From: Schmidtea nova
Taxonomy: Eukaryota
Assembly (NCBI GenBank): GCA_044892505.1
Contig: CM097882.1
Location: 157,790,001 to 157,854,000, forward strand
Direction: 5' to 3'
DNA: 64,000 nt
Shown: positions 5,331-64,000 of the stretch, piece by piece
Layout of the letters: each line of letters begins with the position of its first letter
Numbering within the stretch: position 1 is the first letter of the stretch
Made by a program: the position numbers and the translations under genes
Notes under the pieces: generated by a model
The model's input: the letters and a program-made list of their open reading frames with translations, nothing else
Told to the model about the DNA's origin: nothing
Databases searched by the model: none

Positions 5331-5888
5331 TTAGCTCAAAAATACAGACGGTCTGATCACATCTAATAACTGGTTCTCTGTGAGTCCGCTTAACAAATCC
5401 ACTTCAATGCCCAGTCGTTCGGCATACGCTCTGCGCTCACGTCGTTTCTTCGCCCCTAGGCGATTGCGACGTTTGGTCCTCTTCGAGCCTTCCGGTGGCG
5501 TCGATATCGCTGGGGTGGACGTCATAGGGTCGGGTTCTGTCTCGGTCTGAGTACTGGTAGTGATAGCAATCGTATCCACCCATCGATTGAATGTACTCGC
5601 CCGGATCATGGGGCGTAATTGTTGGGTAATGAACTCCTGCGTGGAGGTTTTCAGGTAATTGTGTAATTCAAGCTTTACGGCCACTACTTCTCTCGCTTGT
5701 TCCTCGGCTACTCGCTCTGCTCGGTACCGGGCTTGTAATATCGCTTTGACCCTCTCTGGATTAAACCAAGTGGTCTTGATGCGCTGGTGTTCTTCGTTCA
5801 ACTGGCGCAATCGACTCTCGAGAACCTTAGAGCGGGCCTTATGCTCCCGGGCCTCTCGCTTGTAATCACGGGAGTTTTCAGTATTCAT
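5331..5888 (-). CDS. LTR-borne ORF2, coiled-coil protein with arginine-rich motif (185 aa, intact)
   Basis: Homologous to 12051-12612, 42494-43069 and 48595-49179 (WF(N/S)PE, IRxxxFxRW, K/RxRLGxxxRRxRR); acceptor TTTTTCTTTGTAG directly before ATG; AATAAA right after the stop. Confidence 0.8.
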   Translation of the reverse strand: MNTENSRDYKREAREHKARSKVLESRLRQLNEEHQRIKTTWFNPERVKAILQARYRAERVAEEQAREVVAVKLELHNYLKTSTQEFITQQLRPMIRASTFNRWVDTIAITTSTQTETEPDPMTSTPAISTPPEGSKRTKRRNRLGAKKRRERRAYAERLGIEVDLLSGLTENQLLDVIRPSVFLS

Positions 5889-42493: not shown

Positions 42494-43069
42494 ATGTTGT
42501 CAAATAACTCAAGCTCGCAAACTGAATTAGATAAGGCTTGGCTATTCATTCACAGCCTAGAGAAGGAAATCAATCTAACCAAAGAAAAGCTAAAAAATTC
42601 TGAAACAACAAATTCACATCTTCGCAAAAGCTGGTTTAGTCCAGAACAAATGAAAAGTCAACTTATAAAAAATCAACGCGCCCAACGAGCCGGAGAAGAG
42701 TACCGCATCGAGCTCGAAGTAACGAAAATAGAATTAAGGAAATGTCTGCGCTCGGTGACGACGTCATTCATTGACACTGAGTTGAAGAATCTAATACGGC
42801 CAGTTACTTATCAACGCTGGTCGGAAGAAAAAGCTGGATGTTCTATAGAAACTAATACCGAAGGGTTTCCGCAAATCCCTGAGGTTATAACAACAACAGC
42901 ACCGAAAATCTCATCTGCAATTGAAATTAAGAAAAACAAGAAAAACAAAATGGGCTCACGCCAAAGGAAGTGGAAAAAACAATTCGCTCAACAGAGAATC
43001 CATCACAATGATGAAATTCCAGAAATCGATCTGACGACAGATTTCATGACATGGGATGAGGATTTTTGA
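42494..43069 (+). CDS. LTR-borne ORF2 (intact)
   Basis: Acceptor GATTTTCAG ends at 42489, ATG at 42494; WFSPEQMK, LRKCLRSVT, LIRPVTYQRW, KNKMGSRQRKWKK. Confidence 0.8.
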   Translation: MLSNNSSSQTELDKAWLFIHSLEKEINLTKEKLKNSETTNSHLRKSWFSPEQMKSQLIKNQRAQRAGEEYRIELEVTKIELRKCLRSVTTSFIDTELKNLIRPVTYQRWSEEKAGCSIETNTEGFPQIPEVITTTAPKISSAIEIKKNKKNKMGSRQRKWKKQFAQQRIHHNDEIPEIDLTTDFMTWDEDF

Positions 43070-47902: not shown

Positions 47903-48116
47903 AGCTAAACCATTTTGTCGTAGCTCCTCAAAATATTTTTGCTTCCACAGAAGATTGACGAAAATAACTCTTTTGCCAGGTTCCATTGCCCTATTTTGAA
48001 CCTAGTTCTCTACAAAATTCATAAGTTCATCATATCTGCTGGGATTATGGGTGGGTTTTAAGTAATTCAGATAAATAGTTAATCATTAATTGAACGACTA
48101 CTGATGAGTACGTATA

Positions 48117-48296
48117 CTAGGGATTCCACGCCCATAACCATACATAACATGACTACTACACGCGTATGCCCTTGACTATTCCCTACTAGTCAAGTTGGTA
48201 CTGCATACGGTGGTGGAAAAATGATGGGCAGGTGAGCTTTGTTGCCAAAACTACTCCCCATTTATCTTCCCTCGGGTCCTTGCTGCCGATAGAAGG
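48117..48296 (-). ncRNA. conserved pseudoknotted cis-RNA element, copy D
   Basis: CGTATGC/GCATACG and CTTGACTA/TAGTCAAG stems; loop TAGGGA pairs with downstream TCCCTA. Confidence 0.7.
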
Positions 48297-48594
48297 TCTT
48301 ACGCATTTACATTCTAGGGATGTTCGCCCTACTGAATTTTGTACTACATATCCTTATGATCTATCATACGCTTTTCCCAATGACTTTCTTTAATTGATCT
48401 ACAATGTAATTAATCAGTCCCTGCGTAGAAACGGTCGGTTTGAGAAAATTTCGGGTGCGATTTTTTATTTCGATGATTTCATTGTTGTTATTTTATTTTA
48501 TTTAGTAACATCACCCGATGAGAGACAAAATTTACACAGAAAATACTTTTATTAAAATACTAAAATCAGGTTGTTATTTTACATAGATATTTTC

Positions 48595-49179
48595 CTAAGC
48601 GAATTCCAGACTGATCTCCTGAATCAACTCCGCTTCGGTTAAGGAGTTCAAGTGGTGGATTTGTTCGTCCAGGCGCTTTGCAAATTCTCGGCGACGACGA
48701 CGCTGTCGCGATCCCATTCGGTGTTTTCGAAGCTGTTGGTTTATGACCGGTGCTGACGCTATTGTTCTCGGGGGATCACTGAGAAAAATAGACAAGTCTT
48801 CCGTTGCGAGAGTGGGGGCCATGATGATTTCCTCTTCCGTCCCGCAAGCGACATCTTGGTGAGTGCATTGTATCCAGCGCTGAGCCGTGATCGGCCGGAT
48901 TAGCGCTCGTAATTCGGAGTCGATGTAACTTCTTGTTACTGCATTTAGGCAGTTTCGGAGTTCCCGCTGGACGGCATCTAGTTCCAATTTGGTTGCGGCC
49001 AGTGCTTCCTGCATCCGCTCAAGTTTTTTCGACTGGTCCTTCATTTGTTCGGGTGAGAACCACTTCGCTCTCAATTCATCATTGGCGACCGTGAGTCGCT
49101 TGATCTGTCGCTGCTGGTCCCTCAACTTCCTTTCTTGGATTTGTCCCATGATTTTCTTAGAATTTTCTGAAGTCGGCAT
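48595..49179 (-). CDS. LTR-borne ORF2 (intact, MPTSENS...)
   Basis: First ATG at 49179, 5 nt after acceptor ATATTCAG; WFSPEQMK, LRNCLNAVT, LIRPITAQRW, KHRMGSRQRRRRREF. Confidence 0.82.
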   Translation of the reverse strand: MPTSENSKKIMGQIQERKLRDQQRQIKRLTVANDELRAKWFSPEQMKDQSKKLERMQEALAATKLELDAVQRELRNCLNAVTRSYIDSELRALIRPITAQRWIQCTHQDVACGTEEEIIMAPTLATEDLSIFLSDPPRTIASAPVINQQLRKHRMGSRQRRRRREFAKRLDEQIHHLNSLTEAELIQEISLEFA

Positions 49180-49505
49180 GTTGTCTGAATATGATAACGA
49201 TAAATTCGCTGGAGGACCTATCACCAATGTTATTTTATTTAAACAACTATTTATTATTATTAAACGAGTTACATACTAATGTTTTTAATTATTGAGTTCT
49301 TTGCAAAATTATTTAACTACCTAATTATTGAAGGCTCAAAAAATTTATTGAACTAATTTGAGATTATTAAATGAAATTCCTAATGACTATAACAACTACA
49401 ATACTAAATATTAATAAATCTACATTACAACACTATTAACAAAATGAACATTTCAGATTTCTTTAAAACATTTATTTAATTTAGAACAGGTGGCCATTGA
49501 TGTAA

Positions 49506-49982
49506 CTAGTTATCTTCGGTCATTTTTCCTCGATACGAAAATATCGATCTGATTTGCAAATTTGTATGGATTCCTGTGCTATTGGACGAGGCCTGCTGAA
49601 AACGGGTTCTCTCCGCTTCTCGAAGGGGTCGTATGGCTGTATTGAACTTGAACCCCAATTCCTTGAAGGTAGAGGCTGGAATGAACCCCCAATAAATGAC
49701 ACATTTCGGGAATCCTCCCTTATCCAACATCAGAACGAACCAGGCGGCGTGCCATGATTCGAATTCCTCGTCTGGAATGATTGGCCAACTAGCGCATCCC
49801 CGGTACCATACGTGATGCCGTGGATGGTCCCATACCGTAAATGGACAGGCGATTTCGAGCTCTCGGCGCCATGCCCACATTTTTTGATGGATTTGCTGTA
49901 AAATCTCGAAAGGTGCCGGCTTTAATGGGCTAACTCGGGCTCGTTCTTGTCGTTTTTTGATAGTGTATCTATGCTTAGTCAT
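49506..49982 (-). CDS. LTR-borne ORF1 (158 aa)
   Basis: WYRGCASWP...WFVLMLDKGGFPKCVI resembles the copy A/B ORF1 core; acceptor AAATTCAG ~15 nt before ATG. Confidence 0.62.
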   Translation of the reverse strand: MTKHRYTIKKRQERARVSPLKPAPFEILQQIHQKMWAWRRELEIACPFTVWDHPRHHVWYRGCASWPIIPDEEFESWHAAWFVLMLDKGGFPKCVIYWGFIPASTFKELGFKFNTAIRPLREAERTRFQQASSNSTGIHTNLQIRSIFSYRGKMTEDN

Positions 49983-50876
49983 GATTCCAAAACGATGCTG
50001 AATTTTATAATAGTTACAATTTACATCAATAATTAATCATAGTAAATGTTATCTCTCATCGTGATACCCTTATTATTTGCCTTCCCCTTAGACCTTAGCT
50101 GAAATCAAGGAAAACTGTCGTTCGTTACGGTATGCATTACTCTCGTATCTACTTAGCTTTATCTGTTTACGATCAATATTATAGTTGAAAAATGGTGATT
50201 TGTCTGCTTGGATTTTTAAAATATTGATACCTCAACACGGAAGCTCTCTCCCGTCATGTATCCCTAGCTTATTCGAAAAACGCTCTTTTGTACCAAATGC
50301 GGTCGACAAAATTTTCTGAGGTTTATTAGACGTTTATCTAGCAACAATTCGTGCCTCCCCACGGTTAAAGAATTCTTTCATATCTTTAAGCTTTATCAAA
50401 AATTTATCGTCCCCTCCGTAGCCAAAACGATCAGAAAATAATTCCCCGGATTTGTTGGGTGTCCCATGTGCAAATCTCATCCATCACTAACAAAATTATG
50501 TTTTGTTATTTATTACTTTACCGTGTGTGGAGCCCTCGAGCACCACGCCACGGACGGACACCTTGGGAACCTAAAGCTCCCAACGGCGCAAGATTAATAT
50601 GATAGTTTAAATAGTTTAAATATAACATAAATCATGAGATAACTAATAAATTATAATATGATAATGACATACGAATACAACGATATCATAAACGTAAATA
50701 TACCAAAAATACCTCAATTGAATTCTGAAAATTTATTGATCAAAATCGGTCTAAACGGTGATCGTCGTCGGGGCAATGTGCAATCTAATGTGAATTTTTA
50801 GTTAAAGTCTAAATTTCAGTCTAACAAAGTCTACTGAAGTCTCACTCTAGTCAAAACGTCTCTTTTTATGAAAAAT

Positions 50877-50923
50877 CTGATCAGTATTTATACTGATCAG
50901 TCGTGTCTAGACCGACCAATCAG
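50877..50923 (-). promoter_or_regulatory. LTR promoter, copy D
   Basis: CTGATCAGTA-TTTA-TACTGATCAG palindrome containing TATAAATA on the minus strand, CCAATCAG box adjacent. Confidence 0.7.
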
Positions 50924-51491
50924 GTTCGGCCATTTTCAGGGTGGTTTTTAATTATTGTTCTTGATTCTAATTAATTTTTATTTTTTAGATTGTATTCTTC
51001 CTTGGAGGTCCGGGTTTCAAAAACAATTATTCAATAACAAGTACTTTTATTTTGTTTTAATTACCATTATTTGTATTTATTTTGTTTTTTAGATGTCTCC
51101 TGGGCCAGTTAATATCTCGAAATTCCTTTATTTTTATTTATAGCTTGTATTTAGTTTATCTATATTTTTACTATATTATTCCTTTCTTTTAATAAATAAA
51201 TATTCCCCTTTTTATCTTATTTTTCTCTTTTTTGTTTTAATTAATCCACTTTTATTTCACTGTTCCCTCTATTTGGCTGGCCCAACATCACTCGGGGACC
51301 CCTAAAATTGCGTCCCGCAATTAATTATACATTTACACCTATATCATCATACATAAAAATTAAGCAGATAAATGTCAATTTACATATACACAAAGAATCA
51401 CATAAGGTGATAGATTTTATACGTAAGCACAAAGTCATATTATTGTTAAATGTAAGTGGATCATACATAAAGTGAATGTAATATATCAGTT

Positions 51492-51713
51492 TTACACAAG
51501 CTCTTTGATTTCATGATTGGTATTGGATTGGATTGGGGTTCTTTCGCTGATTGTTCGTAGTTCGTAGTGGCTTTGGATTCGGTTTAGGTGTTTTCTCATT
51601 CGCTTTTGGGTTCTGCTGTCTTGTATTGTTGTTCGATTCAGGATGACTTGTTTTTGTTTTAGGATCTTCACTCGGTATGATGCTATGAGGATTGTGATCG
51701 CGATAATGGTCAC
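51492..51713 (-). CDS. possible small accessory ORF (hydrophobic N-terminus)
   Basis: Last ORF of the A-rich array; overlapping alternative frame 51511-51750; no clear acceptor. Confidence 0.35.
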   Translation of the reverse strand: MTIIAITILIASYRVKILKQKQVILNRTTIQDSRTQKRMRKHLNRIQSHYELRTISERTPIQSNTNHEIKELV

Positions 51714-51787
51714 GCTGAGTGCAAGGATTATTATAATTGCGATGATCCATTTTTCTTGATATTCTATTTCTGCTTGGGCTAAGCTTT

Positions 51788-52063
51788 TTATGGGTTCTCG
51801 ACCTTCTTTTGGGTTTTTCTGATTGTTTTCAATTTGATTCGATGTTCATATAGGACCTGTTGAAATTTTTCATCGTTTGGGTTGTCTGATGTTATCTGTT
51901 GAAGTTGGGTGATTTCTTGTGTTGCTTCGCTGATTAGTTTATCTAGTTCTTGATAGGTTTTCTCGGGTAGGGCTCGTAGCTCCTTCTCTGTGAGTTGAAG
52001 ATCTTCTCTTTGTAGGGTGATTGTTATTAGGTATATGAATATCGGTATTCCGAGCTTCTTCAT
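51788..52063 (-). CDS. small accessory ORF, hydrophobic N-terminus plus coiled coil (91 aa)
   Basis: Same codon style as neighbours, LGIPIFIYLITITL segment, tandem position in the array. Confidence 0.55.
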   Translation of the reverse strand: MKKLGIPIFIYLITITLQREDLQLTEKELRALPEKTYQELDKLISEATQEITQLQQITSDNPNDEKFQQVLYEHRIKLKTIRKTQKKVENP

Positions 52064-52145: not shown

Positions 52146-53207
52146 TTACACAATCGTCTCGTTTGGTTCGTAGAAACCTTCGTCCTGAGGCTCTACCTGA
52201 TTCGTGGGGAGTGGTATCCATACAACCCTGCTCCTCCACATTTCGACTTCATCTCGATACATGTGAGATATCTGGATTTCCTCGTCCAGCAAATATTCTA
52301 GGTAATTTGCTTGTTCTGTTAATGTTTCTATTTGCTTCTCTAATTCGATTACTTTTGTCTTTTGTTCGTCTTCCTTCATCATTTTTGTTACGGCTGCCGT
52401 TATACTTGCTTCTTTGGGTATTACTGATACTGTTACTCGTTTCTGTTTCAATTCTTCGTTTTCTTTCATCAAATTCGTTAAATTTTCCTCATAACTTTGT
52501 TTCTCTTCCTTTAACCTTTCTCTGGTTCTTTTTAGCTCTATTTTCTTCTGGGTAATCACTCCTTGATAACCATTTATATCTCTCTTCATCTCTTCTTCTT
52601 TCTGATTCCATATTCCGGTGAGCATAATTTTCAGTTGTTCTTGATTAGCAAGTTCTTCTCCCATTCTTTGAACTTGATAGGTTAGTCCTTTAATTTTCTT
52701 TGCTTGTTCCCGGATAAATTGCTGTCTCTTTGTATTCCATCTTTTATTCAACACTTCTTGGTGTATTTTCTGTTCTAACTCGTCTTTTAATTCGTCGATC
52801 TCTTTATATAATTTCCAGTCATCACTATAAGCTGTCCTTTCTATTATTTCTCTAGCTTTTTCGTAAGATTCTTTCGCTTCTTTCTTCCAGTATCTTGCTT
52901 GTTCTGTAATCGAATACATCTTGTGTTCAGCTTCCATCTGCTGTCTGTCTCTTTCCTCTCGTCGCTCTTTCATCATTCTCTGGTAATATTCCTTTTGTTG
53001 TTGTAGCACTTTGTATACTTCTTCTATTTTTTCTCGACTTCTTTGACTTGATCTTTCCGCTTCTTTTAATAATTCGGCTTGTCTCTCTATCTCCTCTTGT
53101 TTCCCATAATATGCATTGACCCATATTTCAATCTGTTCTCGATGATCGCTAATCGCTTCGGCTTGATGTATCGTAATTTCTTGTAAGCATACTTCGATAT
53201 TTCCCAT
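52146..53207 (-). CDS. accessory coiled-coil protein (353 aa)
   Basis: Long E/K/Q/R-rich helical ORF; T-tract acceptor TTTTTTTTTTGAAATTATAG 2 nt before ATG. Confidence 0.8.
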   Translation of the reverse strand: MGNIEVCLQEITIHQAEAISDHREQIEIWVNAYYGKQEEIERQAELLKEAERSSQRSREKIEEVYKVLQQQKEYYQRMMKERREERDRQQMEAEHKMYSITEQARYWKKEAKESYEKAREIIERTAYSDDWKLYKEIDELKDELEQKIHQEVLNKRWNTKRQQFIREQAKKIKGLTYQVQRMGEELANQEQLKIMLTGIWNQKEEEMKRDINGYQGVITQKKIELKRTRERLKEEKQSYEENLTNLMKENEELKQKRVTVSVIPKEASITAAVTKMMKEDEQKTKVIELEKQIETLTEQANYLEYLLDEEIQISHMYRDEVEMWRSRVVWIPLPTNQVEPQDEGFYEPNETIV

Positions 53208-53324: not shown

Positions 53325-54707
53325 TTACGTCAACCATCCTTTTCTATCCGCTTTCTCATTCCTTTCCATTTCTATGTATAGGGTGTCTGCATATAATCGT
53401 TCCCATAAGCTTTCTTTCGTTATAAACATCGGTTCTCCCGCTGCTAATCCACATTCTGTGGTTGGTTTCTCGCTCGTACTCGCATGTTTCTCTGTCTCAA
53501 AGAATTTTTCCACCGGTTTTGCTACACTTCTGATTCTTATAATGACTCCTACTTTCAAGGGCCATTCTACTAGGTCGTCGTATTCTCCTTTACATAGCGA
53601 GAAAAATATTGACACATGTGTTCCTCGTCCTCTTCCGTCTCCATTTGGGTATAGCTTCAATCTCATTTTAGCTCCGTTTCTCCATAAATAAAATGGTGGG
53701 CTTATTACTGCTGTTTTCGTCATATTTCTGGCCTCTGTTAATTTGTCTCTAAAATCTGTCACTTTCCACACATATGGTGCGATTGGTAACTTTTCCTCGG
53801 TATCCTGGGTGAGTTTGTTGTACTGGATTTTCATTCCTTTAGCCAGTTCTTCGATAGCTTTTATCTTTTCCTCCATCTTTTCTCGTGTTAGTTCGAATTG
53901 CTCTCTGGTTTCCAACAGTAGGTTTACCATTATCTTGTGTGACTCTATTTCTCTTTCTAATTTTTTGATTGTTTGTTCGGTTTCTTTTGTTGCTTCGTTT
54001 GTCATTTCCGCATGCTTTAGCAATGCTTCCTCCAGATGTTGTTTCATGGTTTTTTGCGTTCTTTTCTCCATACATCCCTGTTTGTTATAAGGACATTCCC
54101 TTGGTTTCTCCGTGCACACTTTCCAATGTTCTTGTAATTTTACTTCTACCGTTATCTCGCATTCGTTTGAACATATTCCTACATATTGTCTACATACTTT
54201 CTCCTCTTTTACATTCAGGTGTTCTTCTTCGATCTTTCTCCTCGTTTCTCGAGTTCCACAATATTCGCATAGACTTTCCTCTTCTTTACATTCATCTTTG
54301 TGCTGCTCTTTATTCTTTATAGTTATTTTTTGTTGGCATTTGTTACATTCAGTTCTCTTCTCTTCGCAGTTCTCCAGATGGTTCTCGAGATCGCGTATTT
54401 GTCCTTGCCATATACATGGTTGATTTATACATTCGGTTTTCGTGTTCATGATTTCTCTCTGAGTTTCTCTATCTGGTCCGGTTTCTTCGAATTTTATTTG
54501 TCCTTCTTTGCATTCTGGACATTCTGGTGGTCTTTTCATACTTAACTCGTGTATGCATTTGGTACATACTCTGCATCCGCATAGGGTTTGTCTTGGTTTC
54601 AATATTATGTTTTTACAATTTACACAAGTGAGTCTCTGACTCCATTTCCTGTTCTCGGCTCTCAAAATTTCGATTATCCGCTCTTCGGCTTTTCCTTCTG
54701 TATTCAT
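53325..54707 (-). CDS. TRAF: TRAF-family protein (RING, TRAF zinc fingers, coiled coil, MATH), intronless
   Basis: CVNC...CGCRVCTKC...CPEC RING; CxxxC/HxxxC zinc fingers; MATH motifs VWKVTDF, SPPFY, LYPNGDGRGRGTHVSIFF, EYDDLVEWP; acceptor CATTGTAG 1 nt before ATG. Confidence 0.92.
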   Translation of the reverse strand: MNTEGKAEERIIEILRAENRKWSQRLTCVNCKNIILKPRQTLCGCRVCTKCIHELSMKRPPECPECKEGQIKFEETGPDRETQREIMNTKTECINQPCIWQGQIRDLENHLENCEEKRTECNKCQQKITIKNKEQHKDECKEEESLCEYCGTRETRRKIEEEHLNVKEEKVCRQYVGICSNECEITVEVKLQEHWKVCTEKPRECPYNKQGCMEKRTQKTMKQHLEEALLKHAEMTNEATKETEQTIKKLEREIESHKIMVNLLLETREQFELTREKMEEKIKAIEELAKGMKIQYNKLTQDTEEKLPIAPYVWKVTDFRDKLTEARNMTKTAVISPPFYLWRNGAKMRLKLYPNGDGRGRGTHVSIFFSLCKGEYDDLVEWPLKVGVIIRIRSVAKPVEKFFETEKHASTSEKPTTECGLAAGEPMFITKESLWERLYADTLYIEMERNEKADRKGWLT

Positions 54708-54797
54708 TCTACAATGATATATACACTTGATTTGTTATCTATTTTTTGATTTTTCTTGTTTTTGTTTTACATATTTACAATTTTTCGCTTTATTTAT

Positions 54798-55154
54798 CTA
54801 CGGCTCGTTTGTTGAATCTGGTTCTGGGTCATTTTCTGATCTGTTTATTGCCCAATTTGTCCATCCATCCTCTGCTTCTTCTGTCTCTCCCATTGTTAAA
54901 CGGTCTATCTCTATTGCTTGTCTCTGATTTATGTCGCTCATCACTTGATTCTCTCTGGTGAGTTGCGTTATCAATCTCTGTTGCTCCTCGATTCTGTGGA
55001 GTTGTTCAAAACTATTATTATAACTTTCGGATAACAAATTCTGTTTCTCAATTAACTGATTTTGTAGTGAGTTGATTGTTCGTATTAACATGTCACACTG
55101 GGCTTTCCATCGCATAGCCATAGTAGTTTCTGCTATTTCTTCCTGTTCGTTCAT
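54798..55154 (-). CDS. small accessory coiled-coil protein (118 aa)
   Basis: Heptad-like Q/E/L pattern; acceptor TTAATGTATATAATTTAG 3 nt before ATG. Confidence 0.7.
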   Translation of the reverse strand: MNEQEEIAETTMAMRWKAQCDMLIRTINSLQNQLIEKQNLLSESYNNSFEQLHRIEEQQRLITQLTRENQVMSDINQRQAIEIDRLTMGETEEAEDGWTNWAINRSENDPEPDSTNEP

Positions 55155-55279: not shown

Positions 55280-58200
55280 CTATATCACCATCACTGTCTT
55301 TCCTTCGTATCGCTCTTCATCTTCTATTTGTCTCCAAAATTCTTTACCTTTCGTCCTCCTTTGGAATTCTTTATGTACTTCTTCCGGTAATTCTATACTG
55401 TAGTTCATGATCTTTATATCTGGCCAATGTGTTATTGGTTTCTTGTTGAATACATCATATATCCATATTATTAATAATACTGTTATTACTGGAATAGTTG
55501 CTGCTAGTATTCCTAGACCAATTAGTTCTCTAACTTGTTTGTTTACGTCCATCTTCGTAATTTCACTCTGGTTAATCATTGGTCCGTATTGTCCCTTTAG
55601 TTTATTTAGTAGTTGTTCTCGTTCTTGTTGTTTTCTTTTAACTTCTTTAATTACTTCTTCCGGCGTCCATCTTGCGTAAGGGTCTATTACTACTTGTTCC
55701 GCGTCCATTTGTTTCGTTGTCTGACTTAATTCTTTAAATTCGAGTTTTCTCACTTTCCCTTTGGACGTTGAGTTTACCGGTGTGTAGTACGTTTCGCATC
55801 TTTCCTGCTGATTTCCCAGTATGTCCGTCTTTTCTATCGCACATATCTCGTATTCGCTATTGAATTTCAGATTTCTGATACTTATTTCCTCTTTTCCTTT
55901 CGCGTTTCCACAGTCTCGTGGCTGTCTTTCCCTTTGTTTCTGAACTATTACCCAACATATTTCTAACGTTTTATTGTCTATTCTCCATAGTATAAGAGTT
56001 GCTGTAGTATTCTTTTCGGTTTTTATTTGTATATCTTGGTTTTTCTGTTGTCCATTAGGTTTAAAGGTAGTGGTATACCTCGCTTTTCCTTTGTTCCGTT
56101 GTCTTCTACTTTTTCGCGTTGTCTTTCCAGCTCTTGTTCTGGTGGGTGTTTTATATAATCTGCATTCCAATTCATTTACTGTTATTTTGTCGCTTTTCCT
56201 GATCAGGCATATTTCGTACGTTTGATTGCTTTCTAATCCTTCTATCTGTATTGTGGTTGTTCCTCTGTTTGTTCGACATTGCGGCGGTGTATTCTGGTTT
56301 GTTTTCCTTTCCTGCTTCTTCCAGCATACGCCTTTGACGTCCGGTTCTATCCCGGTTAACTCTAACATTATAGTTGTTCTCCGTTTGGTGCGTTTATTTC
56401 TTCTTCCTCGTCGTATGAACTTTATTGTTTCCCCAGGTTGAAATGTTTTACAAATTGTCGTTCCTTTCTTGTGTCTTTCTTTTTCTAGTAAACATAGTTC
56501 ATACGTCCTGTCTGCTTTTACTTCTGATATTTTGGTTACTTTATTTGTTTTCCTTTTCCGACTCGTCTTTATTTCGCTTACGCCAATTTCTTCGTTGCTT
56601 CTGGCCCAACACTTTGGGTTGGTGTTTTGGGTGTCGTTCATCTCTGTTACTGCCATTGTGTCAATGTCTATCCCTTCTTCTAACCGTTTTAACATTGTTA
56701 ATATGAGTGCTAAACATAGTAATTCTGTTTGGTAGGTCACTCTTTCGGTCTCGTTTGTGGTTACTCTTGCTTCGGGCCTGTCTATGGTAATTTGTATAGT
56801 TGGCGTTGTTCGTCTGTCTATTGTCTGAGGTTTCTTGTTTTTTGTTCCTTGTGTCTCTGTTCTTCCACACTTTCCTACAACATAGTCTCCTTTGGATGAC
56901 TGCTGTATTGTTATGGTTACTTTGGGCGTTAGGTAGTTTGCACATGCTATTGTGTTGTGTGATCTTGGATTCTTTTGTTTTCTGATGGTGCATATTTTGT
57001 ACCAAGTATCTAGCTCTAAGTCATCGATCTCTATGATTCCTTGTTCATATTCTGAGATCCTGCAATCCATTGGACTATTTTGTCCCGATATTTTGTCCTT
57101 TTTTGACCAACATACTCGTTCGATTCCTTTTGCGTTTCCAATTTGTATTGTCGCTCTTTCTTCACATATCATTCCTTGAGTTGGACTAATTAAGGTCATG
57201 ATTACCGTTAGTAATAATAGTTCTGGTTTAAAGAATGGGTTTATTGTTTGTTTGTAGCCTGTTCTTTTTGCTTCGTTTTTATTTTTATAGTTGTTGTTTC
57301 TTTGTTTCCCAAATTCATTTTTCTTATCATTTTTCTCTGTGTCCCTTCCTTTCTCTTCACTGTCCTCTTCATCTGATAACTCATGATCCTCTGGATTTTC
57401 TCGAGTACTATCGTCGTCGTTTCCTGTATTGTCGCCTCCCCTTTGGTCGTTGAAAATGTCGTCCTCGACATTAATTGCTTCTATCATTTTTTCATACGTT
57501 ATGGTTGTGAGTATACTTGCTTCATATTCTTGTGTTACTGCCTGCTTAGGTATTTCCTTATCGGTTAATTTACAATCTAGAATCTCTTTCTTGGCTTTTA
57601 TCCAATTATTAAGGTACGTTTTCATTAGTTCTTTCCATTTGTCCGTACGTTCTGTTTCCTTTGGGTTGTTTGTGAATCGTAAATCTTTTCTTCTCATGAA
57701 GATATCTATTATCTTTGGCCATTTGTTTATTATTAATGCACACTTTATATACAAATTTTGGCCTTGTTCCATGCATTCGTTGATCCTGAATGCTGGTTCA
57801 TTGGTGTTTGGGTTCATCCAATTGAGTATTGCTTCAGTTAGTTCAGCGTTATGCATCATGGAATGTACGCTAGCTTTTTTAACTGTCCTTGTAAGGTATT
57901 CTATTTCCTCCTGATTTGTGATTGTTTTTATGAAATTTATCACCTCCCAATTGTGCGCTAACAACGCTACGTCTAGTATTGAGCTGTCTTTGTTAGTTCT
58001 TCCCATGAGTCCTGCACCTGCTTCGTACAGTTCCTGTAACACTCGGGTTTTTGTGTTCGCTCTTGCTGCGAATATCATGAGGGTATCTCCCTTTTTATCT
58101 TTCATGTTCATGTCACTTCCGCAATCTTGCATCAACCGTGCAATTTCGACTACCCTCCTATCTTTTCCTGCTCGTAAGGCTCTATGTATTGGCAATACTC

Positions 58201-61200
58201 CATTCTTTGTTAATAAGAAAGTCACTGGCATTTCTCTTTTTATGATCATCATATCGTTTTCATTGTAAGTTCCTTCCGCATATGCGTGTACCTTTTCCAC
58301 AATTGCTCCGAGTATCTCCAGTGTATGTTTAGAATTTTCGAATTCTGGTAATAGTTCTTTTGCTTTGTCCTGTATCGCATCTAACCTTTCTTGATATGGT
58401 ACTTCTGCGCTGAAAAGTGGTGTAAATTTCCTTTTGCTTTCTCTTTCCTTTCGACATAGGAATTGTTTGCATTTTTCGGGGTGGTTTAATATGTCTATTA
58501 GTTTGTCATACTCTTCTTCCACCGTTTTGTATTTATCTTGAAAATTGGATATATCTTTGTAAGTTATCGTCTTGGTTAGCGATTTTGCACACCATTCCCT
58601 AATTTTCCTGAATAATGCTTCTTTTTCACTTTCGAATTTACACTCCTCTTTGTTTTTGGAAATTGTAATATTTCTTCTGTCCAATAATATTAACAGTGTT
58701 TTCTGATCACAAACTAATTTTAATAGGAATTGTAATAACGCGTTTTGTCCTTTACTGTATACTTCGTTTATATTTAATACCCATGTATCATTTTCGGATC
58801 TTTTCCATTTTATTAGCTTGCGTATTGTTTTGCAGTTACCGATTTTTATTGCCTCCTTGATTATATCACCTTTGATCAGTTCGTCTATTTCCCAAGTGGC
58901 CTTCTCGATTATTCGTTTGAGCATTATCTGATTTGAGCTCCATATTGCGTGATTCAAGACTGTTTTGTTTTCTCTATCGCGCTCCGTCCAGTTGAAATCG
59001 GCATTTATCAAAAGGTCTATTATTGCCTTATCCGATTTGTAGATGGCTGCTACCATTAATGGTGTTTCTTGTTCGCTATTCCCAAAACCAAGGTGTTGGT
59101 TGGTTTCCTTTGCGATTTTTAGAAGTTCTTTTACCCTCTCTACTTCTCCCCATTTTATGGCGTTATGTAATGCTGGTTGTCCTCCTATGTCTTCTAGTGA
59201 AAGTATTTCTGGAATTTTCTCCAGTAGTTCTGAAATGACTGGTTTTGTTGGTAGTCCCCTTGCGTAATCACTAATTATAGACTGTATATCTCTTAATATA
59301 TCGTCTCTGACATGCCATTTTCCCATTATTTCTCTGGCTTTTAGTACAATTTCCTTGTTTCTTTTTCCTTGTTGATTGTTTTCTGCTTCGGTACTTTCAT
59401 TGGTTGCTCTGAGCATATTCATTCTGGCTGTCTGGGATCTAGTTATTATTCGTTCTTCTGGCGTTGTGGTTATTGTCTTTGGTACTTCTTTACATCTGCA
59501 TGTATTAACGTATATTGGTCGTATCAATGGTCGATTAACAAGTTTTACCTTCACATTGTTTTCCTTTTTGTATATGACTTCGTAAGGGCCTTTTCCTGGT
59601 CTTTGTAGTTTTTTAACGGTTCCTGGTATTATTTCTGGGGTTTCTATCATTACCCAATCTCCCGGCTTAAGATCATTTGTTTTAACATTTTTCTTTTGAT
59701 CGTGTAGGTCCTTGTAACTTTCCTGGTAAAACTTTATGTTTAGCTCTGCTGTCTTCCATATCTCTTGCATTCGTTCTTTGAATTTGGTGACGTAATCATC
59801 TTCCTCCATATATTGAGACAAAGGTGGTTGATATTCAAGATCTATTGGCATATTGCATTCCCTTCCATACATTAATTGAAACGGACTCAATTTTGTTGCT
59901 GCGTGTATCGACATTCGGTATGCCATTAGACATAGCTTTATGTACTCATCCCAATCTGTTTGGTGTTTGCTTACATAATTGGATAACATTCGAATCAATG
60001 TGCCGTTAAATCTTTCCGTTTGTCCATTGGTTTGCGGATGATATGGTGACGTTCGTAATTTGGCTATCCGGAAGTAATTTGTTACTTCATCTAATATTTC
60101 GCTCATGAAATTTGTTCCTTGATCTGTTAGTATTTGTTTCGGGGTTCCGTATCGACAACATATTTCCTCTACTAAAATTCTTGCTACCGTCTTTGCTTTT
60201 TGATCCGGCATCGCAAATGCCTCAGGGAATTTCGTCAAATAATCCGTTATTACCAATATATATTGATTCACATTTAAACTTTCTGGCAATGGTCCTATTA
60301 CATCCATCGCAATGGTAGTCATTGGTTCCGCTGGTATTGGCATGGGTTTTAAGGGATTTTTCCATTTCTTCCCACTATCCTTTCTTGTGGCACAAGTTAA
60401 ACAGTTCTTTATCCATTCCTTTACGTCCTCGTCCATTGTTGGCCAATAATATTTTTGTCTCATACGATCTAATGTTTTCTTATCGGACATGTGTCCTCCC
60501 AACTTTCCGTCGTGGTATTGAGTTATTATCTCTTTTCGTCTATTACCTGGCAGACACATTAATCGTTTTTCTCCATCCTGTATTAATAACCATCCTTTTT
60601 CTATTGTGTATCGATGTTGGTATTTCCTCATGTGTTCTTTTAACTCCGCATTGTCTTTGAATACATCCATATTCCGTGAGCTTAGGAATTCTATGATGGG
60701 TCTTAGTTCTTTATCCTCTTGCTGATCTTTCTTTAACTCGCTGAAATCCAAATCTTCTGCTATCATTATGCATATTCTTTGCACTTCTGGGTCTGTTAAT
60801 TCTGGAAACGTTAATCTTGACATGCAATCTGCGTTGGCATTCGCTTTTCCTGATTTGAATTTTATATCTGGTGAATATTCTTGTAATTGCATCGCCCATC
60901 TCATCAACCTGCTGGATGTTTCCTTATGTTGTCCTAGCCATACCAGTGGTTGATGATCCGTGGTTATGCATATAATGTGTCCCCATAATAGATATTTAAA
61001 GTGTTTTATTGCTAATATTATTGCCAATGCTTCTCTTTCCGTTACTGAATAATTCTTCTCGTGTTTCTTGAATGTTCTGCTATAATATCCGATTACCCGC
61101 TCTTTTCCCTCGTCATCATATTGTCCTAACACTGCTCCTGCTGCATATCCACTTGCGTCGGTTGCGAGTAAAAATGGCTTTTTGAAGTCCGGGTGAACCA

Positions 61201-63997
61201 ATATTGGTGCAGTTATTAGCTTATCTCTCAATGTTTCAAAGGCTGTTTGTTGTTCGCTTCCCCATATGAACGATACGTCTTTCTTTACTAGCTCCTGGAT
61301 TGGTTTTGCAATTCCTGCGTAATCCTTTATGAATTTTCTATAGTAACCGCATAATCCGAGAAATTCTTGGATCTGCGTTATCGTCTTTGGTACTGGACAT
61401 TCTTTTACTTTATCAATGTTTCTGGGATCTGGTTCCTTTCCTTTTGCGGACACAATATGTCCTAAGAATGTCACTTTCTCCTTTGCCCAATCGCATTTCG
61501 ATGGTTTGAGCTTGAGTTTCCATTGTCTCAGTCTAACAAATACATCTCTGATATCTTGGATGTGTTGTTCAAATGTGCTTGAGTAGATCAGTAGGTCATC
61601 AATGTAAACCATGCATTGTTTTATGCCGTGGGTAACGAAATTCATACATCTTTGAAATGATGCTGGCGCATTGGTTAGTCCAAATGGCATTTTCCTAAAC
61701 TGGTACAAGTCTCTTCCGATAGTGAAAGCAGTTTTCTCTTTGTCTTCCTCCTTCATTTTAATTTGCCAGTATCCGCTTTTCAAATCCAATGATGTAAAAT
61801 ATGCCGCTCCTTGTAATGTCAATAACATCTCGTTGATGTCTGGTAATGGGTATGTATCCCTTTTTGTAACTGCATTTAATCTCCGATAATCAATACAAAA
61901 TCGTTGTGTTCCGTCTTTCTTTTTCACCATTACAACTGGGAATTGCCACGGTGAGCAGCTTGGTTCAATTACTTCTGCGTCTAGCATTTTCTGTACTTCT
62001 GCTTCGGCTACTGATTTTTGCGCTTCAGCTAACTTGTATGGTCTTAACGCAATAGGCGTTTCGTCTGTTAGTGGAATCGTATGTAGTGTGACGTCGCATG
62101 TCCCTAGATCTAAATCGGATGCTGCGAATATGTCTTTATATTCTATCAGTAATTTTTCTAGCTGTTTCTTTTGATCCTCATTCAATAGTTGGCTATCAAT
62201 GTTCCAAGTGGGTTCTTCCTCTTTTACTCCTTCTTTTATTGGTATTTCGATATCTATCATTGGAGTTAGTTTACCTAATCTTTCATTTTCATAAATTATT
62301 TTATCCTCTTCATCGAAATTTACTACATTTATTGGGATTTCTCCGTTGTCATTCGCACTCACTAATCCCCTTGCCATTGGCAACGACTTTCTCTTTTCAA
62401 ATCTTTTACTGGGTTCAAAGATCATGTCACCTTCTATTGTAGGATCTATTTTTACGAAACATATTTTCTCTCTCCGTGCTGGTACGATTATTTGTTTCGA
62501 ACTTGTTACTTTTGCTTCTATTGCGCATATCTGTCCTGTCCTATCCTTTAATCTCATTGTTCCGAGGTCAATAACTATTTCTTTAAATAATGCTGGCATC
62601 AGATCCGTGCCTATAATGCATGGTACGCTTAGTGCTGGTATTACTGCTACGTACGTTTCGATTTCCGTGTTTTGATGTTTTATCTTTACCCACCATCTTC
62701 CGGCAACTTCTACTACTTCTTTACTGCATGCTATTACGTGAACGTTGGTTCTCTCAATATCCCGTCTTTGTTCTTGTGGTATCCATTTTATATCTATTGC
62801 TGAGATATTTGCTCCTGTATCAATCATCGCTTCAATTTCCCTTCCGTTAATTTCGATTGTTGTAGTTAATACTGGACCGGTGTTTGATGACATTACTGCA
62901 ATTGTATGTGAGTCTCCTTGCGGATCTACGCTTCTGCACCGTCTCGTTCTATAGTCTTCTGGTATCATAGGATATATGTTTGTCATCGGCATCATTTGCA
63001 TTGTATTTTGTCTCATCCCTGGTGTTGGTTCTTGGTACATGGTTGGTGGGGGTGCGTAACACTTCCACATTTCCGCTGGATTCTTTTCGACATACTGTGG
63101 TACTTGATTTTTAAATACTTGACCTCCTTCGTTATCATCATCATCGTCGTCACTGGAATCGTCTTGGGTTCTGTACCCTTTCATTCTTTCCCATAGTCCT
63201 TTTCTCTCTTTCTTTAGTTGTTGTCTTGCTTGTTCGTTATTCATTATCTTTTTAAATTTTCGTCCCACCTCTTCATCGGTTCCTTTCATTTTTGCCAGTA
63301 TTTTTAGGAGTCTCTTTATTCGGTGAATATCTTTTGAATGACCGTGTAATACCATTGTTTTAGCCAAAAATGGTAAGAATCCTACCACCAATTTCCAATT
63401 TACTTTCTTTTCTCTTTTATAGATGTCAAAACAGGCTAACATTTGCGTTATTATTACCCGTATTATTTGTATAATTAGTATAACACCAAGTATTCCTGCC
63501 ATCATTTGTCCAAATATTAAAAATCTTCCCCACATCGCTTTCATCATGTTTTCCGTTGCCTTCTTAAAGTGGGCTGGTGACAATAATAATTCATAATTTG
63601 GTCCACCTTGGTAATTTGTTCCTCCTGTTATTGTTACAATGCTGGATAACACCGCTTCCCTTCTTGCTGGAAATAGTATGTTTTGTCTCGCTGCCTCTAA
63701 GTCTTTTGCGCTATAGAATCCCATATTGCTTACATCTACGTCTTTAAATTTTCGTCCTTTTGATAGTTGCATCAATTCAAATTCCCTTGGTGCTGGTACC
63801 TCTGTTCTTGACGGAAACATAACCCAATTCCCGTCTGGTTTTTGGTATAATGGTCCATATGCGTTGCTGCAATTGAAAGGGTTTGGTTCGAAGCTTACTG
63901 GATTTATGATTCTTGTCACTGGTTGCACATATCTTACTTTCCCTTTGTATTCGATTTCTAGTTCGTTAGTACACTGACCTGGTTGTAATTTGGTCAT
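55280..63997 (-). CDS. pol: giant polyprotein (>2905 aa, 5'-truncated by window): glycoprotein-TM, protease, RT, RNase H, integrase, ankyrin repeats, signal peptide, 4 FN3-like repeats, TM
   Basis: DTG 62813-62821; YIDD 61595-61606; DAS 61151-61159; HHCC ~60390-60514; DVIGP/TDQG/GQTERFN core; GPY ~59585; ankyrin LH/PL motifs 57930-59190; no stops; frame open to the window edge. Confidence 0.95.
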   Translation of the reverse strand: MTKLQPGQCTNELEIEYKGKVRYVQPVTRIINPVSFEPNPFNCSNAYGPLYQKPDGNWVMFPSRTEVPAPREFELMQLSKGRKFKDVDVSNMGFYSAKDLEAARQNILFPARREAVLSSIVTITGGTNYQGGPNYELLLSPAHFKKATENMMKAMWGRFLIFGQMMAGILGVILIIQIIRVIITQMLACFDIYKREKKVNWKLVVGFLPFLAKTMVLHGHSKDIHRIKRLLKILAKMKGTDEEVGRKFKKIMNNEQARQQLKKERKGLWERMKGYRTQDDSSDDDDDDNEGGQVFKNQVPQYVEKNPAEMWKCYAPPPTMYQEPTPGMRQNTMQMMPMTNIYPMIPEDYRTRRCRSVDPQGDSHTIAVMSSNTGPVLTTTIEINGREIEAMIDTGANISAIDIKWIPQEQRRDIERTNVHVIACSKEVVEVAGRWWVKIKHQNTEIETYVAVIPALSVPCIIGTDLMPALFKEIVIDLGTMRLKDRTGQICAIEAKVTSSKQIIVPARREKICFVKIDPTIEGDMIFEPSKRFEKRKSLPMARGLVSANDNGEIPINVVNFDEEDKIIYENERLGKLTPMIDIEIPIKEGVKEEEPTWNIDSQLLNEDQKKQLEKLLIEYKDIFAASDLDLGTCDVTLHTIPLTDETPIALRPYKLAEAQKSVAEAEVQKMLDAEVIEPSCSPWQFPVVMVKKKDGTQRFCIDYRRLNAVTKRDTYPLPDINEMLLTLQGAAYFTSLDLKSGYWQIKMKEEDKEKTAFTIGRDLYQFRKMPFGLTNAPASFQRCMNFVTHGIKQCMVYIDDLLIYSSTFEQHIQDIRDVFVRLRQWKLKLKPSKCDWAKEKVTFLGHIVSAKGKEPDPRNIDKVKECPVPKTITQIQEFLGLCGYYRKFIKDYAGIAKPIQELVKKDVSFIWGSEQQTAFETLRDKLITAPILVHPDFKKPFLLATDASGYAAGAVLGQYDDEGKERVIGYYSRTFKKHEKNYSVTEREALAIILAIKHFKYLLWGHIICITTDHQPLVWLGQHKETSSRLMRWAMQLQEYSPDIKFKSGKANANADCMSRLTFPELTDPEVQRICIMIAEDLDFSELKKDQQEDKELRPIIEFLSSRNMDVFKDNAELKEHMRKYQHRYTIEKGWLLIQDGEKRLMCLPGNRRKEIITQYHDGKLGGHMSDKKTLDRMRQKYYWPTMDEDVKEWIKNCLTCATRKDSGKKWKNPLKPMPIPAEPMTTIAMDVIGPLPESLNVNQYILVITDYLTKFPEAFAMPDQKAKTVARILVEEICCRYGTPKQILTDQGTNFMSEILDEVTNYFRIAKLRTSPYHPQTNGQTERFNGTLIRMLSNYVSKHQTDWDEYIKLCLMAYRMSIHAATKLSPFQLMYGRECNMPIDLEYQPPLSQYMEEDDYVTKFKERMQEIWKTAELNIKFYQESYKDLHDQKKNVKTNDLKPGDWVMIETPEIIPGTVKKLQRPGKGPYEVIYKKENNVKVKLVNRPLIRPIYVNTCRCKEVPKTITTTPEERIITRSQTARMNMLRATNESTEAENNQQGKRNKEIVLKAREIMGKWHVRDDILRDIQSIISDYARGLPTKPVISELLEKIPEILSLEDIGGQPALHNAIKWGEVERVKELLKIAKETNQHLGFGNSEQETPLMVAAIYKSDKAIIDLLINADFNWTERDRENKTVLNHAIWSSNQIMLKRIIEKATWEIDELIKGDIIKEAIKIGNCKTIRKLIKWKRSENDTWVLNINEVYSKGQNALLQFLLKLVCDQKTLLILLDRRNITISKNKEECKFESEKEALFRKIREWCAKSLTKTITYKDISNFQDKYKTVEEEYDKLIDILNHPEKCKQFLCRKERESKRKFTPLFSAEVPYQERLDAIQDKAKELLPEFENSKHTLEILGAIVEKVHAYAEGTYNENDMMIIKREMPVTFLLTKNGVLPIHRALRAGKDRRVVEIARLMQDCGSDMNMKDKKGDTLMIFAARANTKTRVLQELYEAGAGLMGRTNKDSSILDVALLAHNWEVINFIKTITNQEEIEYLTRTVKKASVHSMMHNAELTEAILNWMNPNTNEPAFRINECMEQGQNLYIKCALIINKWPKIIDIFMRRKDLRFTNNPKETERTDKWKELMKTYLNNWIKAKKEILDCKLTDKEIPKQAVTQEYEASILTTITYEKMIEAINVEDDIFNDQRGGDNTGNDDDSTRENPEDHELSDEEDSEEKGRDTEKNDKKNEFGKQRNNNYKNKNEAKRTGYKQTINPFFKPELLLLTVIMTLISPTQGMICEERATIQIGNAKGIERVCWSKKDKISGQNSPMDCRISEYEQGIIEIDDLELDTWYKICTIRKQKNPRSHNTIACANYLTPKVTITIQQSSKGDYVVGKCGRTETQGTKNKKPQTIDRRTTPTIQITIDRPEARVTTNETERVTYQTELLCLALILTMLKRLEEGIDIDTMAVTEMNDTQNTNPKCWARSNEEIGVSEIKTSRKRKTNKVTKISEVKADRTYELCLLEKERHKKGTTICKTFQPGETIKFIRRGRRNKRTKRRTTIMLELTGIEPDVKGVCWKKQERKTNQNTPPQCRTNRGTTTIQIEGLESNQTYEICLIRKSDKITVNELECRLYKTPTRTRAGKTTRKSRRQRNKGKARYTTTFKPNGQQKNQDIQIKTEKNTTATLILWRIDNKTLEICWVIVQKQRERQPRDCGNAKGKEEISIRNLKFNSEYEICAIEKTDILGNQQERCETYYTPVNSTSKGKVRKLEFKELSQTTKQMDAEQVVIDPYARWTPEEVIKEVKRKQQEREQLLNKLKGQYGPMINQSEITKMDVNKQVRELIGLGILAATIPVITVLLIIWIYDVFNKKPITHWPDIKIMNYSIELPEEVHKEFQRRTKGKEFWRQIEDEERYEGKTVMVI

Positions 63998-64000
63998 TGT

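Follow-up and report, generated by a model that had tools for sequence, protein, structure and literature searches.

A complete TRAF gene is a conserved accessory gene of Burro-type giant retrotransposons in a planarian genome

The 64,000-nucleotide stretch of Schmidtea nova DNA analysed here (the window) carries a full-length TRAF gene that is a fixed accessory gene of three families of Burro-type retrotransposons, designated A, B and C. The gene is under purifying selection, with a dN/dS of about 0.13. Our preferred reading, to which we assign a probability of roughly 0.6, is that this gene was captured once from the planarian group of TRAFs with a cysteine-substituted RING (Cys-RING), that it would be expressed from a spliced mRNA and that its product would serve as a trimeric ubiquitin-ligase adaptor favouring survival of the carrier cell.

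The TRAF ORF is a single uninterrupted frame (Table 1) with the features of the TRAF family, namely a MATH/TRAF-C domain, a TRAF-N coiled coil and an N-terminal RING followed by zinc fingers. A first protein search returned 13 matches, all of them distant TRAFs. Pfam analysis placed MATH_2 at residues 312-447 (E 1e-21) and TRAF-mep_MATH above the cut-off, with a zf-TRAF match (E 8e-5) falling below it. The PDB matches of the MATH domain were TRAF5, TRAF3 and TRAF2 (E about 1e-22), and those of the RING and fingers were TRAF6, TRAF5 and TRAF2 (E 1e-11 to 7e-8). An AlphaFold model computed from an input of 10 sequences (mean pLDDT 83.3, pTM 0.37) was elongated and displayed, in order, the RING, the fingers, a 73-residue helix at residues 229-301 (pLDDT 81-91) and a MATH sandwich; its best Foldseek matches were TRAF domains and the TRAF6 N-terminus. 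Domain, structure and fold matches therefore bear out the complete RING, zinc finger, coiled coil and MATH architecture of the original prediction. All eight RING cysteines and the ligands of fingers 1-3 were invariant in an alignment of three element and seven host TRAFs, while fingers 4 and 5 were read off the sequence and alignment. Across the aligned element TRAFs no RING or finger ligand has been lost.

Table 1 Features of the TRAF gene and its element, in window coordinates
Feature	Position	Strand	Basis or remark
Full-length TRAF accessory ORF, 460 aa	53325..54707	-	ORF reading, Pfam, PDB matches, AlphaFold model, Foldseek
C4C4-type RING: C28, C31, C43, C45, C48, C51, C63, C66	54510..54626	-	Alignments
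Five TRAF-type zinc fingers, residues 93-232	54012..54431	-	Ligands by eye, alignment, zf-TRAF match
TRAF-N coiled coil, helix 229-301	53805..54023	-	Predicted model
MATH/TRAF-C domain, residues 312-447; pocket altered at A409-S410-T411, S412, E425	53367..53774	-	Pfam, alignment to TRAF3
A/T tract ending TAG, one base before TRAF ATG: candidate splice/trans-splice acceptor	54709..54730	-	Start-site comparison
3' LTR, 3.25 kb, TG...CA	48037..51287	-	LTR comparison
4-bp target-site duplication TATC, repeated beyond 5' LTR	48033..48036		Flank comparison
ORF1 polyprotein, 3' part	55280..64000	-	4987 aa in all; start 6.2 kb beyond window end
Accessory ORF118, without known family	54798..55154	-	Common to families A, B and C
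Accessory ORF353, coiled-coil type, no Pfam match	52146..53207	-	Common to families A, B and C
Fourth 3' accessory ORF (186 aa in family B)	51507..52063	-	Two frames here, hence broken in window copy

Reading the window together with the next 40 kb showed that the TRAF ORF is enclosed by both LTRs of a single complete element, which is 28.4 kb long and on the minus strand. The 5' LTR lies 9.2-12.5 kb beyond the window end, and the LTR pair is 99.8% identical (3 substitutions and one 3-bp indel over 3.25 kb); this copy is very young. Between the 5' LTR and ORF1 are the primer site, an 18-nt match to the 3' end of host tRNA-Pro, and a 153-aa ORF that ends in an IAP-type RING of XIAP/cIAP-like sequence (E 5e-11) and gave no match to a BIR domain. 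ORF1 encodes gag with CCHC knuckles, a fusion glycoprotein (PF24664), protease, RT, RNase H, integrase, ankyrin repeats and a C-terminal membrane-type region. The gene order is LTR, 153-aa RING ORF, ORF1, ORF118, TRAF, ORF353, fourth ORF and LTR. A size of about 30 kb with long LTRs, a target-site duplication, a primer site and a single polyprotein of the order gag - env - PR-RT-RH-IN - ankyrin are all Burro features, and the element is a Burro-type giant gypsy/env retrotransposon, an assignment made by architecture rather than by sequence comparison with the named Burro1-4. Pfam gave no match in the element for BCL2-like, ubiquitin-like, dUTPase-like or BIR motifs, and ORF1 residues 1480-1640, searched for a BCL2-like region, gave no Atlas match.

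The association of TRAF with this element is a general one. A protein search of the genome with the TRAF yielded 6487 candidates, and the best 92, which were scored, comprised 87 members of family A (86-100% identity) and 5 of family B (78-79%). Element flanks surrounded all 30 of the best copies (28 in full on both sides, two missing part of the upstream flank). When loci were instead selected by the end of ORF1, TRAF was present at 30/30. Among 90 exact ORF1-end matches of family A, TRAF sits directly behind ORF1 in 88, of which 85 were paired with a TRAF match within 2.6 kb and three more by inspection; one exception has lost most of TRAF by deletion and the other, interrupted, has its TRAF about 23 kb away. 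The original prediction that the gene is borne by a retroelement is thus upheld by its position between two LTRs and its fixed place in 88/90 copies, and the contrary pattern, in which other copies lack the gene and this one has host-like synteny, was not what we found (host flanks 0/30).

Family A occupies at least 92 TRAF places. Exact 24-mers gave 124 matches for family B (79% identity) and 109 for family C (53% identity), these patterns marking the 3' part without implying that each copy is whole. Element-borne TRAF copies across the three families number at least 325 and are near-identical within each of the three sets. Reading a single copy each of B and C end to end revealed the same gene order as in A, and the LTRs of the C copy are 99.9% identical. 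A further family, D (G000:C1:97.57-97.60 Mb), has a lone MATH domain within its polyprotein, and the cassette is absent from it as a block. In each of the four families an IAP-type RING ORF precedes ORF1.

Selection on the gene was evaluated between and within families. Pairwise comparison of natural copies gave a dN/dS of 0.127-0.140 for A versus B (5 pairs), 0.07-0.11 for B versus B (10 pairs) and about 0.11 for A versus C, where dS is near saturation; in every TRAF domain the ratio was at most 0.21. Variants shared by at least two copies were 31 synonymous and 15 nonsynonymous in family A (30 copies, a sample biased by protein ranking) and 112 and 44, respectively, in family C (20 gap-free of 22 C loci). 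Thirty copies picked by ORF1 and not by TRAF gave 10 and 8 over codons 1-300 (ratio 0.18, p 4e-4). The coiled coil is 59% conserved between A and C and 78% between A and B. Synonymous divergence between A and B was lower over codons 306-447, the MATH domain (pS 0.31 versus 0.55-0.74 in the other domains), possibly through recombination between families.

These values leave next to no room for a neutral passenger, or for a host gene around which an element happened to insert. Internal stops in 12 of the 87 scored family A copies and singleton variants that lie closer to neutral (ratio 0.23-0.54) could be read in that way, but both are as expected from ordinary decay after insertion, whereas the shared variants and the comparisons between families record strong purifying selection on a gene present in hundreds of dispersed element copies. 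Element flanks, dN/dS, the fixed place in 88/90 copies and the same order in B and C together refute this explanation.

The gene also shares the coding style of its element. The frequency of A at four-fold sites is 0.58 in the window TRAF and 0.61 in ORF1, ranges from 0.58 to 0.71 in the TRAFs of families A, B and C, and is 0.25-0.40 in nine host TRAFs. The A-rich recoding claimed at the outset is therefore real, and TRAF must have resided in the element for long enough to acquire this bias.

Host TRAFs were surveyed through a MATH family search of the genome (best 150 of 2419 candidates scored). Loci were taken from 20 plus 40 stretches favouring non-element rows and from two more, with about six host rows left out, so that the resulting 57 host loci are a lower bound. 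In nine of these a single frame encodes both RING and MATH. Another 36 encode the RING in a frame of its own; they are mainly two-exon genes and include two broken single-frame genes and one gene with several introns. The remaining 12 showed no RING. Cassette genes were found near none of the 57. Most of the loci are concentrated in G000:C2:405-455 Mb, a large tandem field composed mostly of genes with a RING exon and a MATH exon, with a 4.7-kb tandem unit near 443.28 Mb.

The original prediction had singled out a RING histidine replaced by cysteine, and the change is present: CGCRVC of the element RING aligns with CGHRFC of TRAF6 and TRAF5, giving a C4C4 RING where the TRAF family type has C3HC4. 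It is not specific to the element, however, since the host genes are likewise C4C4. A host RING pattern gave 45 matches, or 44 after one false zinc knuckle was dropped, and 43 of these have Cys at the His position, the remaining one having Ile; the intron-rich canonical host gene L049, which the pattern missed, keeps the His. In a set of 150 library TRAFs this position is His in 76 and Cys in 20, the Cys group including TRAF-2 and TRAF-4 of Dendrocoelum lacteum and, separately, a crinoid TRAF3-like protein. The host RINGs and this library group rule out the substitution as an element innovation. The intronless state of the gene has a similar outcome. The frame is open and single as claimed, but with RING and MATH in one frame at 9/57 host loci, the absence of introns is ruled out as proof of retro-capture; the closest host genes are themselves single-frame, and no intron loss relative to a donor is demonstrable. 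The Cys-RING and the single frame are likely host traits that the element TRAF inherited.

A further suggestion, that element copies inflate the planarian TRAF count, holds in part. At least 325 element copies stand against 57 host loci, but the host expansion is separate and lies mostly in the tandem field; for this genome, the 57 separate host loci rule out the view that distinct host TRAF genes stem mainly from elements. Transcriptomes have revealed a planarian MATH expansion of 121 domains, and the sections of that report consulted draw no link to transposons (PMC6109357). Genome counts of TRAF need element copies removed, and the host expansion holds without them.

The relationship of element and host genes was addressed by phylogeny. 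The TRAFs of A, B and C form one clade in every tree (100/100), and their closest host matches are the single-frame Cys-RING genes L046 (32% identity) and L047 (30%). A 55-row quick tree with 22 His-RING library outgroups placed the element genes in the planarian Cys-RING group (SH-aLRT 81), which includes the named Dendrocoelum lacteum TRAFs. Their sister in this tree (support 95) is the library protein P0034 (469 aa, 35% identity), likely a Burro-borne TRAF of another planarian; P0034 is K/E/R/T-rich like the element TRAFs. When MATH was used alone, A-C and D grouped at 84/64 and sat with host L056/L065 at 92/89. AU tests leave alternative placements unrejected (p 0.06-0.32 overall), among them element with canonical host TRAFs (p 0.19 and 0.10) and element with the outgroup (p 0.23), the element rows being of odd composition. 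A motif in the long finger-3 spacer, common to element and host single-frame TRAFs, is only partly specific, with matches in 12/76 His-RING proteins as well; a looser pattern for this spacer had no discriminating power.

The simplest reading of these sequences is that TRAF was likely captured by the element from the host before families A, B and C separated. Flow in the reverse direction, with the host single-frame Cys-RING TRAFs deriving from an element-borne gene, appears very improbable. Many host TRAFs do lack introns, and a 20-row whole-protein tree places the element genes as sister to the single-frame host group, albeit weakly (40/79). Yet divergence within the host single-frame TRAFs greatly exceeds that among A, B and C, these host genes lack A-rich coding and cassette neighbours (0/57 loci), and single-frame Cys-RING TRAFs exist in Dendrocoelum, which lies outside the two families for which the consulted part of PMC13465017 reports Burro1 expansion.

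The receptor pocket of the element MATH was mapped through alignment to TRAF3, using the TRAF2 pocket definition in the consulted sections of PMC6125299. The Px(Q/E)E hot spots examined were F410, L432, F447, F456 and C469, the serine triad, and R393 and Y395. The element MATH does not retain the conserved hot-spot set of the TRAF2/3/5 type. The polar site and three of the five hydrophobic residues are kept or similar (F368, I390, F403, K351, Y353), the serine triad reads A-S-T, and the equivalents of F456 and C469 are S412 and E425, so that two of the five hydrophobic residues are gone in families A and B. All three of A, B and C have Glu at the C469-equivalent position, a residue absent there from the 12 host rows aligned; the host relatives likewise lack the serine triad and the Cys. 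In the comparison of A with C, MATH also shows the lowest conservation of any domain (48%). The protein is, judged by its sequence, a TRAF without assignment as a TRAF2/3/5 orthologue, and classic receptors are not likely to be among its partners.

Such a pocket could also belong to a decoy, a TRAF that joins host trimers or takes their E2 or partners and thereby blocks antiviral RIG-I/TBK1/TAK1-p38 signalling while itself silent. We rank this second to the pro-survival role and consider it doubtful. Hot spots 1 and 2 are altered relative to the definition in the consulted text of PMC6125299, the coiled coil through which trimers would be joined is strongly conserved, and planarian TBK1, according to the accessible part of PMC13563047, restrains the expression of foreign nucleic acids and is an inducer of TRAF genes. 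A pure decoy, however, would not need the eight-ligand RING and five fingers that are kept at a dN/dS of 0.12-0.21, and the matching losses in the host relatives mean that pocket decay is not unique to the element.

Expression of the accessory genes may involve splicing. A YAG (TAG or CAG), which tends to close an A/T tract, occurs 0-4 nt before 14 of 15 accessory starts (A 5/5, B 5/5, C 4/5), compared with a background of 6-13% across these spacers and 1/7 host starts, under a rule that was drawn up on family A and applied to related families. This placement suggests spliced subgenomic mRNAs, formed in cis or with a spliced leader, and the TRAF message would be joined at the YAG immediately before its ATG. 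Trans-splicing is reported in flatworms. Four unlabelled contig runs of one study cover the stretch; they contain no usable splice joint and have no bearing on expression either way.

In TRAF proteins the RING, fingers and coiled coil serve trimer formation and E2 binding. Conservation of these parts makes it likely that the element TRAF would form a trimer through its coiled coil and MATH and bind an E2 through its RING; the partners it binds would differ from the classic Px(Q/E)E receptors. Together with the IAP-type RING gene of the element, it may then shift host stress and immune signalling in favour of carrier-cell survival. Several reports bear on this predicted role. Knockdown of planarian TRAF2-like genes leads to more cell death and is lethal (PMC7586133; PMC8807557), traf2-1 inhibits inflammatory tissue loss (PMC4993586), TRAF genes are targets of planarian TBK1 (PMC13563047; review PMC7958881) and the B-IAP of Burro1 is reported to protect stem cells (PMC13465017), all as stated in the portions of these sources consulted. 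The host need for TRAF2-like survival signals, the IAP-type RING on the element and the B-IAP effect would make a pro-survival role the most probable one, and the manipulation of host cell death or immunity put forward in the original prediction is plausible. Against a pro-survival adaptor, the altered pocket and least-conserved MATH fit a decoy equally well, and the one tested viral TRAF, ORF111L of the megalocytivirus ISKNV, is pro-apoptotic in the consulted sections of PMC3352826, which calls for caution. The absence of a BIR match in the upstream RING ORF and of a confirmed BCL2-like region in ORF1 counts against it as well.

Family D thrives without the cassette, a further point against the preferred reading. 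This family also bears on an unlikely alternative, ranked below the decoy, in which TRAF would serve the element's own cycle, for example as an adaptor or E3 for polyprotein products or cassette proteins. TRAF is always accompanied by ORF118, ORF353 and the fourth ORF, and family D, without the whole cassette, has MATH inside its polyprotein instead. The 4987 aa of ORF1 contain 10 matches to Px(Q/E)E-like words, but words this short are expected by chance and none occur in ORF118, ORF353 or the ORF1 tail. Extending the pro-survival reading, we offer only tentatively that Burro families might resemble complex retroviruses, with a spliced accessory programme rebuilding the core of a TNF-receptor survival complex (TRAF, IAP-type RING and membrane proteins), and that more than 300 TRAF copies might aid host cell survival and regeneration as a second host-transposon mutualism beside B-IAP.

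Comparison with known systems delimits what is new. A MATH_TRAF_C domain has been noted in Burro1 since Jurka 2007, according to the consulted part of the review PMC6431247. The same sections describe Burro1/GYPSM1 and Burro-2 to -4 of Schmidtea mediterranea as having the same giant gypsy plan, with one polyprotein of about 5000 aa in which env separates gag from pol, and with ankyrin repeats as well as apoptosis and ubiquitin cargo; family D shares the Burro1-4 layout. In Burro1-4, MATH is a lone domain inside ORF1, whereas here ORF1 lacks MATH and a complete RING-finger-coil-MATH gene lies downstream in a four-gene cassette. A Burro-like element of Dugesia tigrina (same review sections) resembles ours in having ORF1 without MATH and MATH on a separate accessory ORF; that ORF is described as upstream and by its MATH domain only, whereas ours is downstream and full length. 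B-IAP of Burro1 (Lee et al. 2026, via the consulted text of PMC13465017) is likewise a host-type survival gene on a Burro element, but it combines RING and BIR with a tested function, while the TRAF is a different gene with a predicted role and the upstream RING ORF here has no BIR match.

ISKNV ORF111L and the TRAF-like genes of giant DNA viruses are also virus-borne genes with RING, coiled coil and MATH. ORF111L differs in belonging to a DNA virus, in its length of 296 aa and in binding TRADD and promoting apoptosis (PMC3352826, in the part consulted), and viral and element TRAFs, 19-21% identical in the fold match, represent independent captures. The planarian host TRAF2-like proteins (Smed-TRAF-2A/B, traf2-1; Dendrocoelum TRAF-2 and TRAF-4) have the same architecture at 25-32% identity, and the Cys-RING is common to the element TRAF, host members of this genome and Dendrocoelum members. 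Unlike the planarian TRAF2-like genes, the element TRAF combines A-rich coding, a K/E/R/T-rich protein, Glu at the C469-equivalent position and hundreds of dispersed copies.

PMC8532177 and PMC11410931 mention Burro without TRAF in the sections consulted. Prior knowledge thus covers the MATH domain in Burro, and the complete TRAF in the 3' cassette is new with respect to the literature searched, in which PMC6431247 was the one relevant source and we found no prior description; Lee et al. 2026, Grohme et al. 2018 and Jurka 2007 may hold one. Selection here preserves an entire adaptor of innate immunity and survival within a retroelement, much as in large DNA viruses, and where Burro was known to carry MATH by itself, its cargo now includes the complete gene, in a cassette that is likely spliced. 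The role of the gene is directly testable, since one RNAi probe per family could silence all copies and spare host TRAFs, which share at most about 32% protein identity.

Several minor observations concern rearranged copies. Four family B matches about 33.5 kb apart at G000:C1:590.84-590.94 Mb represent either whole elements arrayed in tandem or an assembly repeat, and a family B TRAF copy that lacks its downstream part is bordered, at L039:1-2874, by a 958-aa frame belonging to another mobile element. Deleted family C copies carry in-frame fusions of the protease region with MATH (L063, G000:C2:167.49 Mb) and of MATH with the ORF353 tail (L062, G000:C1:277.92 Mb), which show a route by which MATH can enter the polyprotein.

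Other observations concern the remaining parts of the element. The ORF1 tail after the ankyrin repeats (55280-57300, minus strand), which gave no Pfam match, has a signal-like hydrophobic stretch, repeated Cys-containing units and a short-tailed membrane segment, and may be fibronectin-III-like. ORF353 ends in ETIV in family A (window 52146-52160, minus strand), ETLV in B and ETDV in C (L035, L060), and a 110-aa 3' ORF of family D (G000:C1:97.59 Mb) also ends in ETLV; these termini have the appearance of what is presumably a class I PDZ-binding motif. A tandem tRNA-Pro(TGG) array with a 308-bp unit lies at G000:C1:459.61 Mb, and the 3'-end pattern has 899 matches genome-wide. The LTR carries two minus-strand ORFs without a Pfam match, of 158 aa (49506-49982) and 194 aa (48595-49179). 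Homologues of the latter (29-36%) occur elsewhere in the window at 5355-5882, 12072-12488 and 42560-43033 and are likely LTR remnants of related families.
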